A stretch of 64,000 nucleotides of DNA from a virus. The DNA is taken from positions 15,842 to 79,841 of IMG/VR virus record IMGVR_UViG_3300046463_001154. One strand, written 5' to 3'. The notes beneath the pieces are model-generated. The model ran no database searches, was not told the origin of the DNA, and worked only from the letters and a program-made list of their open reading frames with translations. Positions 12,407-43,787 of the stretch are shown piece after piece. Both the position numbers and the translations under genes were made by a program. Position 1 is the stretch's first letter. The number at the start of each line of letters is the position of its first letter.

Positions 12407-14374
12407 ATGGCAGTCAATACCGGCAACAACAACCGCGCAGCGGCAGCAGAAGCGACCTCGATGGCAGCAGCATTCAGCCGTCAACAGGAGCAGTCGGCAC
12501 AAGGTCAGCAGCAAGCAGCACCGAGCGCATCACAGCGCCCGCAACAGCGCACCCGTCTGTCCGATCTGGGAAGCCTCGCGCGTTCGGCAATGGGCCGCAA
12601 CCCGCAAAGCGAAGTGATCACGAAGCTGAGCAAGGCGCTCGAAGCCGCGTTCGCCGGCATCGACAAGAGCTACGAAGTCACGCTCATCCCCATCGACTAC
12701 AACAACACGCAGTCGCTGGTGAAGTCGGTGATCGTCGTCGCAATGCGCGACCTGATGAACAAGGACACGGGCGTGGCCTGCCACACCCTGATCCTGGAAG
12801 GGTCGAGCGAGCCGCTGCAAGTCGGCTACCAGATGATCAACAACCAGAACGTCGAAATCCTGCGCGTGGCCGGCGACGTCAACAACAAGACGCTGTCTGA
12901 CGAAGTGCTGGCAGCCGTGTCGCGCACCTTCCCCGGCATGCCGATTTGGCCGGTGGACGCATGCGTGGTGCCGCGTGACTTCAACGTCGATGACGTGACG
13001 CTGGTTCACGAGCTGGCAGCGAACGCTGCAACGGCTTGCACGACTGAACTCGAAGTGCGTCAGCCGGGCGGCTTCGCGGACCTGGACCTGGGCACCGTTG
13101 AGCAAGAGAACTCGCTGACCGTTCAGCCGACGTTCGGCAACGGCCAGTCGCGTGACATGGTCGGCGCACCGGTTCGTTCGGACATCGTGATCGACTTCCG
13201 TGCAGGCGGCCAGGAGATTCCGGGTCAGCAAGGCGTGACGCAGCGCGTGTCGCAGATCTCGCGCATCAGCGGCTACATGGACCTCGCATGGGCACCGGCC
13301 GAGCAGCAGACGCAAGCGTTCAATCCGTGGGTCGCACCGCAGGCGCAGCCGGCGTCGCCCGACGAGTTCAAGCGCTATCGTCCGCGCTTCGTGATGACCG
13401 ATCTCGAGTCGGTCAAGCTGCTCACGATTCCGGCGCAACTGCTGGCACTCGTGACGGCGTTCACGCTGGCTGAGAACAACGCATGGGTTGAAGCGTTCCG
13501 TCCGGCTCCGATGAGCAACAGCGCGGAAGTGGACTGGAAGGACATCGGCGCGATCGGCATCGAAGCGAACTTCGAGAAGAACCCGAACGGCTTCGGCTCG
13601 CGCGTCGATACGAAGTCGGATGCGTTCCAGCGCGGTCAAGGTCAAGCAGGCGATCACCTCCTGCGTCTGGTCGGCTCGGTCATCACGCCGAAACTGATCC
13701 TGTCGCTGGACGTGCCCGAGTGCGGTCCGCAGACGTGGTTCAACGGCATCTTCGCAGCATCCGGTGAACTGACCGGCAACAACTGGCAGAAGGCGAATGA
13801 GATCATCGTCCGCGCGGCGAACGTGCTCACGCACGGCAACTTCAGCCGTTACTTCCAGGCCGGTGGCCGCGTGGCGTCCGACGAATTCAACCGCATCCAT
13901 CTGGGTTGGTACGTCGACCGTCATGGCGTGAAGCGTGACCTGCGTGACATCGATTACCTGGCCGTGCTCAACATGGTCGGCGATCGTGATCCGGAAGTTG
14001 CCCGCGAATGGTCGGACTCGTTCGCACGTACGAACATGGACCTGCAAGTTCGTCTGGCGAAGCGCAAGCAGATCATCGAAGGCGTGCTCGGCAAGAACAA
14101 CGTCGAGTTCACCGGCTTCGCGCGTCGCGTGACGTTCGACCCGGCGTTCATCGTCGCGCTGCTGAATGCGTGCAAGGACACGGGCCTCTCGGTCCGCACC
14201 ATCGCACCGATGACGGATCTGAACCAGTACGAGCGCGCGGTGAACCCGTACGTGATCTCGGCTGGTCTGGATACGGCGTCGCTCAACGGCTCGGTGTTCA
14301 ACCGCGGCTTCGCGCATTCGCAGCAACAGCAGTACGGCGCTCGCGCGGGCTTCAGCCGCTGGTCGCAGCAGTAA
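12407..14374 (+). CDS. chmA: Chimallin, phage nuclear shell protein (phiKZ gp54/PhuN-like)
   Basis: 655 aa with low-complexity N- and C-terminal extensions, strong RBS, highly biased codons and its own terminator; lies directly upstream of the nvRNAP beta' gene as in Chimalliviridae; RIHLGWY...RDLRDIDYLAVLN segment. Confidence 0.85.
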   Translation: MAVNTGNNNRAAAAEATSMAAAFSRQQEQSAQGQQQAAPSASQRPQQRTRLSDLGSLARSAMGRNPQSEVITKLSKALEAAFAGIDKSYEVTLIPIDYNNTQSLVKSVIVVAMRDLMNKDTGVACHTLILEGSSEPLQVGYQMINNQNVEILRVAGDVNNKTLSDEVLAAVSRTFPGMPIWPVDACVVPRDFNVDDVTLVHELAANAATACTTELEVRQPGGFADLDLGTVEQENSLTVQPTFGNGQSRDMVGAPVRSDIVIDFRAGGQEIPGQQGVTQRVSQISRISGYMDLAWAPAEQQTQAFNPWVAPQAQPASPDEFKRYRPRFVMTDLESVKLLTIPAQLLALVTAFTLAENNAWVEAFRPAPMSNSAEVDWKDIGAIGIEANFEKNPNGFGSRVDTKSDAFQRGQGQAGDHLLRLVGSVITPKLILSLDVPECGPQTWFNGIFAASGELTGNNWQKANEIIVRAANVLTHGNFSRYFQAGGRVASDEFNRIHLGWYVDRHGVKRDLRDIDYLAVLNMVGDRDPEVAREWSDSFARTNMDLQVRLAKRKQIIEGVLGKNNVEFTGFARRVTFDPAFIVALLNACKDTGLSVRTIAPMTDLNQYERAVNPYVISAGLDTASLNGSVFNRGFAHSQQQQYGARAGFSRWSQQ

Positions 14375-14416
14375 GCAGTAGTGCCTGCGCCTCGCTCACG
14401 CGGGGTGCAGTTGGGC

Positions 14417-14466
14417 GGAGGGGGCGAAAGCCCTCTCCCCTCTCTTTATGCCGTCTTTCTTTTTTT
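14417..14466 (+). terminator. chmA terminator
   Basis: ggagggggc-GAAA-gccctctcc, then TATGCCGTC and a T-run. Confidence 0.75.
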
Positions 14467-14513
14467 GGTCATCACACGCGGCTAGACCACCGCAGCTGTA
14501 GAGAAAAACGAAG

Positions 14514-14654
14514 ATGAACGTGTGGATGATGGTCGGTACGGCTGGACTGACAGCCGTTTCCCTTGCCCTGGTGATCAGTGGCGTGCTCGCTTACACCTCG
14601 ATCGCTCCTCAACGAGGAGTTGGAAACAAGAAGTCGATTGACTCGTCGGGTTGA
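14514..14654 (+). CDS. Small single-TM protein (46 aa, not in the ORF track)
   Basis: Manual translation MNVWMMVGTAGLTAVSLALVISGVLAYTSIAPQRGVGNKKSIDSSG; fills the intergenic gap. Confidence 0.45.
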   Translation: MNVWMMVGTAGLTAVSLALVISGVLAYTSIAPQRGVGNKKSIDSSG

Positions 14655-14669
14655 AACGAAATTCGGCGA

Positions 14670-14686
14670 TATATCACTAGCTTGAA
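14670..14686 (+). promoter_or_regulatory. Putative early promoter of the nvRNAP beta' operon
   Basis: TATATCAC-tagct-TGAA. Confidence 0.65.
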
Positions 14687-42503: not shown

Positions 42504-42562
42504 GTCGACCTCCCTCTGATAATCTGCCCGCAGCAAGGCTGATACCCGCAACGGAGACAGCG

Positions 42563-42817
42563 ATGGTCAAGGTTGAGTTAGATCTGAGCGACGACATATA
42601 TCGCAGCTTGGTCATGGTCGCCGAGGCTTGCAGCGTCGCAAATAAGCAACGCGACGGCGCGACCACTCACGGTCCACTGGATGTCAAAGCGCTGCTTATG
42701 ATGCTTGCCGAGGATGCAGCCATGGTTCACAGCCGGCCCGGCTCATGGGAAGGTTCGAATGCGTCCGAGCTCTTGGCGTCACACGGCTACTGCGTGTCAA
42801 GAAATAGGGACAGGTAA
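42563..42817 (+). CDS. Small hypothetical protein, possible ribbon-helix-helix N-terminus
   Basis: MVKVELDLSDDIYRSL start; GGAG RBS. Confidence 0.5.
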   Translation: MVKVELDLSDDIYRSLVMVAEACSVANKQRDGATTHGPLDVKALLMMLAEDAAMVHSRPGSWEGSNASELLASHGYCVSRNRDR

Positions 42818-42836
42818 AAGTTCGATAGAAACAATT

Positions 42837-43436
42837 ATGTCAAATCAAAGTGCGATTCTGGTTTTTCTGACATCTTCAATTGTCTTTACGCTGTGCATCT
42901 TTGCCATACTTAGAACCCAGCGAAACCTTGGCCGCCTCAGACTTTCGGTAATGCTCGCGGTCACTGCGGTTTGTTACTTCATCATTGCCACACTCTTGTG
43001 GTTCGCGATACACGACTGGCTATCATACGGCCGCGATCTCATCCCGGCGATTCTTCTGCTCATTTGGGAGTTCGTTGTACTTGCGGTCCTGTACTACAGA
43101 TCGCCGCTGACAAAGCTGACTGCAATAGGCGTGATCGTAGCCTGGACCATTTTCATGTACACCCGTTTCTACATGACCTCTGGGGTATGCAGCGACGCTG
43201 ACTGTCTGGCGATCAACGTAAAGCACGACTGGCGCAGTGCGCTGTACTTTAGTGTGATCACCTTCACCACGACCGGCTACGGCGACTACCACCCGCGCGA
43301 GCCGGATAGACTCATCGCCGCTTCCGAAGCTCTCGTCGGCTATATTTTTTTCGGCCTTTTTGTGTCGCTGCTCGCTTCATATTTCTCACGTTCGGAATCC
43401 CGCGAAGATCGAGGGGAAGGACATTTCAGCGGGTAA
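42837..43436 (+). CDS. Potassium-channel-family membrane protein (Ion_trans_2 pore)
   Basis: Several TM helices; pore signature ALYFSVITFTTTGYGD; AT-rich codons. Confidence 0.85.
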   Translation: MSNQSAILVFLTSSIVFTLCIFAILRTQRNLGRLRLSVMLAVTAVCYFIIATLLWFAIHDWLSYGRDLIPAILLLIWEFVVLAVLYYRSPLTKLTAIGVIVAWTIFMYTRFYMTSGVCSDADCLAINVKHDWRSALYFSVITFTTTGYGDYHPREPDRLIAASEALVGYIFFGLFVSLLASYFSRSESREDRGEGHFSG

Positions 43437-43460
43437 TGTCTTGCTTTGTCCCGCTTGGGG

Positions 43461-43787
43461 TTACTCTGCGATCAAAAACTTCTCGCGCTTCTTTCCCTTA
43501 ATCCAAAGGGGCTCACGGCCGCGGCCGCTCCAAGTCGCGCCCGTCTTCGGATCCTGATACTTCGCTGCGACCCGTTTCTTAGCGACAGATTTCGATCCCT
43601 TCTTCGCCGGCCCTCGCTTTCCTTTCGTGTCGATGTCCGCGATCGTCAGTCCGTACTGAGCCATCAGCGAACTGATCTGTTCGAGCGCCGCCTTGCGTCG
43701 CGCCTCTTCTTCTTTAGCCACCTGTCCCTGCACCTTCGCCAATTGTTCACGCAGTTTGTCGAGCCGCGCATTCGGTTGCATTGCCAT
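43461..43787 (-). CDS. hns: H-NS family xenogeneic silencer (Burkholderia Bv3F-like)
   Basis: N-terminal coiled coil, YGLTIADI and KYQDPKTGATWSGRGREPLWI; AGGAG RBS. Confidence 0.92.
   Translation of the reverse strand: MAMQPNARLDKLREQLAKVQGQVAKEEEARRKAALEQISSLMAQYGLTIADIDTKGKRGPAKKGSKSVAKKRVAAKYQDPKTGATWSGRGREPLWIKGKKREKFLIAE

Follow-up and report, generated by a model that had tools for sequence, protein, structure and literature searches.

A repABC-like parA-parB-rep cassette in a chimallivirus genome suggests plasmid maintenance of a nucleus-forming jumbo phage

Background

Chimalliviruses are the model system for phage 'nuclei'. Part of their appeal for therapy is that they are regarded as strictly lytic and as shielded from DNA-targeting defences. 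As Prichard et al. reportedly set out in 2023, the core of the Chimalliviridae comprises 21 genes, including ChmC and PicA. All characterised members of the family are treated as strictly lytic (PMC12908238). Here we describe a 64-kb stretch of metagenomic virus DNA (hereafter the window; bases 15842-79841 of the 79,841-bp IMG/VR record IMGVR_UViG_3300046463_001154), in which a parA-parB-rep cassette of plasmid type lies among phage genes. The window is part of a phiKZ-type chimallivirus (a myophage) whose probable host is Caballeronia/Paraburkholderia. Like phiKZ, 201phi2-1, Goslar and RAY, this virus combines a chimallin, phiKZ-type RNA polymerases, a split DNA polymerase, a PhuZ-like tubulin and myovirus genes in a genome of ~280 kb. 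Its nearest cultured relative, Burkholderia phage FLC9 (LC667451), has a chimallin 45% identical to that of the window and is without ParA, ParB and Rep.

Seoul-like, Goslar-like and 'Bapsvirus' chimalliviruses have been found in isolate assemblies, their whole genomes forming separate contigs (bioRxiv 10.1101/2024.12.31.630880; 10.1101/2025.05.06.652010). A screen of enterobacterial persistent chimalliviruses for genes of plasmid replication and partition reportedly found none (bioRxiv 10.1101/2024.12.31.630880), unlike the Burkholderiaceae viruses described below, in which the cassette was present in every isolate-borne member found.

In other respects the present virus is like a phage-plasmid: it unites on one molecule a full phage gene set (judged from a complete relative, G002) with replication and partition genes, it is, again by G002, without an integrase, and the phage backbone is conserved while the plasmid module on it varies. 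Groups of phage-plasmids, with P1, N15 and SSU5 among the phages concerned, were reportedly delineated by Pfeifer et al. in 2021, and pBtic235 (235 kb) is a large phage-plasmid. To our knowledge, neither a phage nucleus nor RNA polymerases supplied by the phage itself occur in any phage-plasmid group. Moreover, the window matches P1- and N15-like phage-plasmids in ParA only, at 29-33% identity (31-33% to the N15-/PY54-type proteins). An earlier note on this DNA, made from the sequence, had proposed an episomal prophage lifestyle not known to be described for the family, and literature searches agreed on the latter point, returning the persistence preprints and no chimallivirus with a plasmid replicon.

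Results

The parA-parB-rep cassette is intact and belongs with Burkholderiaceae replicons

The cassette occupies the minus strand at 36198-39800 (Table 1). Its three open reading frames (ORFs) lie where the earlier note had placed them, and both the Walker B and the deviant Walker A motif (KGGVSKTT) of ParA are kept. The order of partition ATPase, ParB-type protein, small antisense RNA and initiator is that of the repABC replicons of Alphaproteobacteria, and the window ParA and ParB score best against the repABC RepA and RepB partition models, at values below the cut-offs (TIGR03453, 203 bits with a cut-off of 348; TIGR03454, 46 bits with a cut-off of 201); partition RepA is also the best NCBIfam match of ParA. 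Unlike in repABC, Rep matches no RepC family, the antisense RNA matches no counter-transcribed RNA (ctRNA) of Rfam, and the hosts are Betaproteobacteria.

Caballeronia, Paraburkholderia and Burkholderia replicons share the three genes, their order, the antisense promoter/terminator and the 9-mer pair (NZ_CP014508, AP014580 and the 141-kb plasmids of B. glumae); unlike on those plasmids and chromids, the replicon here sits between phage genes in a chimallivirus genome. For example, ParA is 88% identical to the ParA of NZ_CP014508, a 287-kb plasmid of Burkholderia sp. PAMC 28687 with equal gene order, and Rep is 58-65% identical to the product of a 'Replication protein O' gene that follows parA-parB on >100 plasmids of Caballeronia, Paraburkholderia, Burkholderia and Cupriavidus. 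DNA similarity of the window to plasmids was limited to 36605-39801. Rep was unmatched in all 50,697 phage records, and the cassette DNA likewise found no match in phage records. The predicted model of Rep has an N-terminal winged helix (Z about 6). The Rep family has 493 relatives at E <= 1e-10 and is common on plasmids and chromids of Burkholderiaceae; it is named differently by source, as 'Replication protein O' or as 'ArsR family regulator'.

Host-type regulatory elements are conserved between phage and plasmid copies

The 223-bp gap between parB and rep contains the promoter of a candidate antisense control RNA (TTGACT at 37384-37389, 16 nt, TACACT at 37406-37411), whose predicted transcript of ~100 nt (~37418-37520) ends in a terminator hairpin (37482-37513) followed by a T run. 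Eight copies of this gap were aligned, one each from the window, G002 and a plasmid and five from C. arationis contigs, with Rep identity down to 56%; across them the hexamers of the antisense promoter were invariant and the hairpin stems showed compensatory changes. Neither the antisense RNA nor any other part of 32700-45700 was matched in Rfam.

Upstream of parA, a sigma70-type promoter lies in a block that is conserved with the upstream region of the plasmid, and beyond it lies an inverted 9-mer pair, the only two copies of this 9-mer in the window. The pair recurs, 76 +/- 1 nt apart, upstream of parA in G002, in G075 (a virus record from an isolate genome), on the C. arationis contigs C445, C145 and C323 and on the plasmid, and it is kept even at a ParA identity of only 45%; we regard it as a candidate centromere or operator. 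Further upstream, the canonical LexA (SOS) box before imuA is conserved in G002 and on the C. arationis contigs C445, C145 and C413. Thus the cis elements that the earlier note had ascribed to the operon were found in part: sigma70-type promoters, an antisense RNA with its terminator and the inverted 9-mer pair were located, iterons and an origin (oriV) were not.

The cassette lies in a genuine chimallivirus genome

Chimallin, RNA polymerase subunits and DNA polymerase, all named in the earlier note, were matched by PF25677 and PHROG profiles (for example, chimallin reached 162 bits against PF25677, with a cut-off of 27). Beta-type pieces of RNA polymerase, four in the window and two more in G002, fall into six different PHROG families; the window also matches several conserved phiKZ-type PHROGs of unknown function, and a PhuZ-like tubulin is encoded just upstream of it. 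The window chimallin is 91-92% identical to the copies of G002 and C. arationis, and the helicase gene before the cassette is syntenic in G002, G074, G075, G431 and G433.

G002 (IMGVR_UViG_3300047322_001237) is 278,988 bp long with ends that overlap by 127 bp, and CheckV rates it 100% complete. The whole 79.8-kb source contig is collinear with it, Rep (78-81% identical to the window Rep), ParB and ParA being at equal position. A tail sheath, the terminase large subunit, virion proteins, tail fibres and large virion RNA-polymerase subunits were confirmed in G002, which is therefore a whole phage.

The earlier note had considered that the source contig might be a replicon of a bacterial isolate; it proved instead to be a metagenome contig, and its sequence is present in 20 rhizosphere/soil metagenome runs from 17 studies. 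The stretch 31001-46500 is covered by Logan contigs from four other samples at a depth matching the phage flanks, with single pieces spanning 31779-36851, 33477-36762, 33762-36762 and 37334-41224. Such pieces bridge the left junction and the cassette; none of those listed bridges the right junction (44932-44958), and continuity there rests therefore on synteny with G002. Chimeric junctions, which would have undone the proposal of the earlier note, were thus not detected: independent contigs bridge the left side, and G002 shares the cassette site.

Chimalliviruses found in cultured Burkholderiaceae carry the cassette

Further replicons that unite chmA, parAB and rep were found on searching, in cultured bacteria, and the Burkholderiaceae host deduced in the earlier note fits. 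Every chimallivirus found in cultured Burkholderiaceae had the cassette (C. arationis LMG 29324, Paraburkholderia sp. BCC1886, Paraburkholderia sp. HC6.4b, P. adhaesiva and one further isolate). In three of these isolates chimallin and Rep are on one contig of 283-286 kb, the size of a complete phage: i) in BCC1886, chimallin WP_144106656 and Rep WP_144106634, with accessions 22 numbers apart, on a 286,074-bp contig; ii) in HC6.4b, on a 282,688-bp contig; iii) in P. adhaesiva, on a 284,264-bp contig. Linkage in these three was read from matching contig sizes, adjacent accession numbers and 100% identical proteins of IMG/VR fragments.

G074 and G075, virus records from isolate genomes that were found with a profile of the Rep family, have chimallins 35-39% identical to that of the window, share ~165 collinear ORFs with G002 and show the order helicase, 175-aa gene, rep, parB, parA; the Rep of G074 is 100% identical to the protein on the 282,688-bp contig of HC6.4b. 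An IMG/VR fragment with a chimallin identical to that of BCC1886 stops 1 kb after the 175-aa gene, and we infer that the cassette of the BCC1886 lineage follows this gene. In C. arationis LMG 29324 (G003), the phage is divided between a 143.7-kb contig, which stops immediately before the cassette, and a 74-kb contig, which picks up again after the island described below, while a 14.3-kb contig (rep-parB-parA-imuA-ligase) overlaps the end of the 74-kb contig.

C. arationis has one chimallin gene and five Rep paralogues. The four extra paralogues, 56-78% identical, are on contigs C145, C413, C323 and C591 (loci L044, L045, L046 and L048); C145 and C413 repeat an extended unit that includes imuA and the SOS box, and the assembly probably broke because 349 bp of C145 match the end of the 143.7-kb phage contig at 94% identity.

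Among the 48 chimallin-bearing IMG/VR records, the Rep family or ParA was found only in G002 and G074, and among the 18 that are >=90% complete the cassette was found in one (G002). In the chimallin tree the cassette-bearing genomes form three sublineages, separated by the cassette-less G431, G432 and FLC9. No chimallin was found in PLSDB plasmids, in the genomes of 68 other Caballeronia species or in a 400-genome sample of the family, and no cassette lay within 10 kb at 57 metagenome loci with distant relatives of the helicase.

The cassette family was also seen outside the chimalliviruses. Record G073 (locus L110; IMGVR_UViG_3300047321_000298; also L109/G072), of 245,517 bp with a 127-bp end overlap, carries a copy whose ParA, ParB and Rep are 74%, 50% and 59% identical to those of the window; a chimallin is absent, and only about nine of its ORFs are shared with G002. 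Judged by these sequences, G073 is a second, unrelated jumbo element that has captured the replicon.

The cassette belongs to an accessory island at a constant site

In G431 (285 kb, complete, chimallin 63% identical to that of the window) the conserved 175-aa gene and the macro-domain gene are 1.7 kb apart, without plasmid genes; in the window the same two genes enclose 9.4 kb with the genes for the lipoprotein, rep, parB, parA, imuA, ligase, channel and hns. Because G431 has the same flanking genes without the island, we regard the island as accessory and its slot, with the cassette inside it, as fixed. Homologues of the 175-aa gene stand directly before rep in G002, G074 and G075, before the empty site in G431, and 1 kb from the cut end of G433.

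The cargo of the island differs between relatives. The predicted lipoprotein is 26% identical to the G002 gene at the equivalent position and has no family match in Pfam, PHROG or NCBIfam. Within 40281-41348, the orphan imuA stands behind a perfect LexA box and is not followed by imuB-dnaE2; in their place is a 106-aa ORF of unknown function, absent from G002. Between metagenomes, cargo varies at 41900-42850 (from the ligase-side ORF to the ion-channel gene), where depth falls to about half in all four samples and where the contig of one sample skips 90 and 166 bases and has 188 bases swapped for 852 others. A DUF4262 gene between the helicase and the island (33921-34409) has counterparts in G074/G075 (27-34% identical) and none in G002/G431. 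The island of G075, and only this one, has a tyrosine recombinase gene (G075:C1:136396-136854) ~5.5 kb beyond parA, which could serve dimer resolution or be unrelated cargo.

rep is under purifying selection, and the cassette is a mosaic

Between the window and G002, the ratio of nonsynonymous to synonymous substitution rates (dN/dS) of rep was 0.14 at dS 0.87; the ratio was 0.15 for chimallin and 0.04-0.06 (at dS 0.3-0.5) for the polymerase subunits. Thus rep is under purifying selection. The parts of the cassette have different relatives: the ParA of the window is closest to a plasmid protein (88%), the ParA of G002 is 90% identical to that of G074 and 43-46% identical to that of the window, and its ParB is 84% identical to that of G074, while its Rep is 81% identical to that of the window and 60% identical to that of G074. 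In the Rep tree, the phage copies are interspersed among copies from Caballeronia plasmids; the window and G002 fall into a supported eight-member clade with a C. novacaledonica copy, C. arationis C445 falls elsewhere, and monophyly of the phage copies is left undecided by the tree. Such a mosaic suggests repeated recombination with resident plasmids while a working cassette was kept. GC content at third codon positions (GC3) is 0.54-0.72 in the island, 0.72-0.80 in the phage core and 0.52-0.57 in one plasmid, and gives no acquisition date.

Table 1. Positions of the cassette, its candidate control elements, the island genes and the phage genes in the window
Feature	Position	Strand	Evidence or remark
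phiKZ-type DNA polymerase, first part	5232-7400	+	phrog_2927 4e-252
Chimallin (ChmA), nuclear shell protein	12407-14374	+	PF25677 1.8e-47, phrog_4795 6e-102
Multisubunit RNA polymerase, beta-type subunit piece	14779-16308	+	phrog_2987 2e-145
SbcD-like nuclease gene	18706-19839		
Phage RNA polymerase subunit gene	26859-29108	+	phrog_3295 1e-230
Phage RNA polymerase subunit gene	29159-31150	+	phrog_3015 2e-188
Phage helicase, last large core gene before the island	31156-32745	+	phrog_16 1e-29
Conserved 175-aa phage gene, left junction marker	34800-35327	+	
Predicted lipoprotein (variable cargo; lipobox LAAC in the signal peptide)	35500-36153	+	read from sequence
Rep, plasmid initiator-type, 382 aa, uncharacterised Burkholderiaceae family	36198-37346	-	plasmid homology
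Candidate antisense control RNA opposite the rep leader	~37384-37520	+	promoter/terminator scan
ParB	37570-38592	-	PF02195 1e-11, TIGR00180 above cut-off, phrog_4715
ParA, long type, N-terminal extension	38565-39800 (ORF open to 39845)	-	PF13614 3e-37, phrog_164 2e-58
sigma70-type parA promoter (TTGTCA, 17 nt, TACAGT)	39906-39934	-	promoter scan
Inverted 9-mer pair CGTGAAACA ... TGTTTCACG, candidate centromere or operator	40014-40022 and 40091-40099		
Canonical LexA (SOS) box TACTGT-N8-ACAGTG before imuA	40281-40300		
Orphan ImuA	40313-41026	+	NF033429 211 bits, cut-off 150
ATP-dependent DNA ligase, adenylation domain	41350-42003	-	PF01068 2e-34
K+ channel-type ion-channel cargo gene	42705-43436	+	PF07885 2e-14; absent from G002
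H-NS-type nucleoid protein	43461-43877	-	PF00816 7e-14; 64% identical copy in G002
Macro-domain gene, conserved phage gene at right junction	44726-45175	-	PF01661 1e-10
Phage RNA polymerase subunit	48872-50251	+	phrog_2962 2e-143
phiKZ-type DNA polymerase, second part	54419-56239	-	phrog_3011 3e-218

Discussion

Most likely the cassette keeps the phage genome in dividing cells as a low-copy plasmid, and on balance we favour a plasmid-prophage or plasmid-stabilised carrier lifestyle for this virus, a reading of its sequence that we consider probable rather than assured. Several lines of evidence point to such a plasmid state: i) In a lytic chimallivirus infection, host RNA polymerase and LexA are without access to the DNA inside the vesicle and the shell (PMC12908238), and the host-type promoters, antisense RNA and LexA box would act only on DNA exposed to the host; ii) Possession of the cassette goes with residence in cultured bacteria; iii) No tyrosine recombinase or integrase was found in the complete genome of G002, so that persistence, if any, would be episomal.

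Under the proposed mechanism, the phage genome would be replicated by the host replisome and would be partitioned to daughter cells as naked plasmid DNA of low copy number. The core of the island would act as a repABC-like maintenance cassette, with parA-parB expressed from the sigma70 promoter behind the 9-mer pair, the antisense RNA in a control role, and replication presumably initiated by the winged-helix Rep. The chimallin, PhuZ and own-polymerase programme would run only in lytic growth; in the plasmid state the lytic genes would be silent, since early promoters would need the virion RNA polymerase, which would be absent from a dividing carrier cell, and the island H-NS may be an added silencer. 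Induction might proceed via the LexA-controlled island genes (the imuA operon), which would link it to DNA damage. Low copy number, silence of the lytic genes and an induced switch to nucleus-based growth are what we infer from this gene content. A role for ParABS as a replacement of PhuZ was also considered, and was rejected, as PhuZ is present.

Several observations weigh against the plasmid state: i) The Rep family is uncharacterised, Rep had no match to any Pfam, PHROG or NCBIfam model (E <= 0.01), and no match was returned by a sequence search of the PDB or by Foldseek of its model against the PDB at E <= 0.001; VIA-align of the model gave generic winged-helix matches at Z 5-7 (MarR, ORC/Cdc6, TubR), which are diagnostic of no initiator family; ii) A repeat search of 35300-40600 for iterons gave only short two-copy families of chance quality, and no oriV was located (visible iterons being absent would fit a repABC-style origin inside the initiator gene); iii) The search of G002 recognised neither a repressor or antirepressor nor an S24 peptidase, and S24 peptidases were not found in G000 and G001 either; iv) The complete close relatives G431 (with its empty site), G432 and phage FLC9 do without the island, which is therefore dispensable for the phage; v) Chimalliviruses without plasmid genes persist in isolates (bioRxiv 10.1101/2024.12.31.630880; 10.1101/2025.05.06.652010), thus residence in cultures is not specific to plasmid life; vi) A circular assembly is also expected of a permuted virion genome; vii) If rep was often replaced, part of the purifying selection seen on it could have taken place in plasmids. 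Since no repressor was recognised, close relatives lack the module and chimalliviruses persist without plasmid genes, true plasmid lysogeny and a plasmid-stabilised carrier state are not separated by the data.

The bolder form of the proposal, in which this nucleus-forming clade would be truly temperate, is possible but rather doubtful. Some genomes would then, once inside the cell, live as naked cytoplasmic low-copy plasmids run by the cassette, with no classical repressor, host RNA polymerase being unable to read the phage promoters, the virion RNA polymerase being diluted out and H-NS perhaps adding silencing, with restart upon DNA damage through LexA-imuA, and plasmid life would be recurrent in jumbo phages of Burkholderiaceae, as G073 might illustrate.

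A more modest explanation is that a virulent phage persists by chronic or pseudolysogenic infection, as reported for Seoul-like and Goslar-like chimalliviruses, and that the cassette is cargo which at most slightly aids the inheritance of stalled genomes, with no repressed prophage and no regulated switch. Persistent chimalliviruses documented in isolates without plasmid genes (bioRxiv 10.1101/2024.12.31.630880), the failure to find a repressor family and the completeness of the module-less relatives all speak for it, and we grant it a real, if minor, chance. It accounts poorly for the contrast between Burkholderiaceae isolates, whose chimalliviruses have the cassette in every case, and complete metagenomic records, 17 of 18 of which are without it; moreover, the conserved copy-control and partition elements and the purifying selection on rep are hard to explain for idle cargo.

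It is unlikely that the cassette instead serves the lytic cycle, whether through early host-driven replication before shell closure, through positioning or segregation of the DNA or nucleus, or through displacement of resident plasmids by incompatibility, exerted by Rep, the antisense RNA and the centromere. Its closeness to plasmids of the same hosts, together with the four further Rep copies of C. arationis (about 76-78% identical to the window Rep in one comparison), makes interference by incompatibility possible; on the other hand, curing a plasmid is too slow to matter within one lytic cycle, PhuZ and a DNA polymerase are already encoded by the phage itself, and complete lytic relatives manage without the cassette. 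In addition, from phiKZ biology neither the host replisome nor host RNA polymerase is expected inside the shell. Least of all do we credit an artefact or a decayed remnant (a misjoined plasmid fragment, or a megaplasmid with a dead chimallivirus), for although the source is a 79.8-kb metagenome contig and IMG/VR labels some relatives 'provirus' (with cuts that fall at the cassette, as expected if the classifier takes it for host DNA), the same junctions occur in independent samples and five other assemblies, and every core gene tested proved intact and subject to purifying selection, with terminase, sheath, virion proteins and both polymerases in G002.

Conclusions

Phage-plasmids and chimalliviruses are each known; their combination is new and would surprise specialists. 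If the proposed plasmid maintenance holds, a plasmid-living lineage would overturn the assumption that Chimalliviridae are strictly lytic, and it would raise the question of how an enclosed, self-transcribed genome switches to a naked, host-replicated and silent state and back. It could also explain the recurrence of jumbo phages in isolate assemblies. C. arationis LMG 29324, Paraburkholderia sp. BCC1886, HC6.4b and P. adhaesiva offer culturable systems in which to pursue it. Moreover, the cassette adds a repABC-like family of betaproteobacterial replicons, with a conserved antisense RNA, for which there is no curated model.

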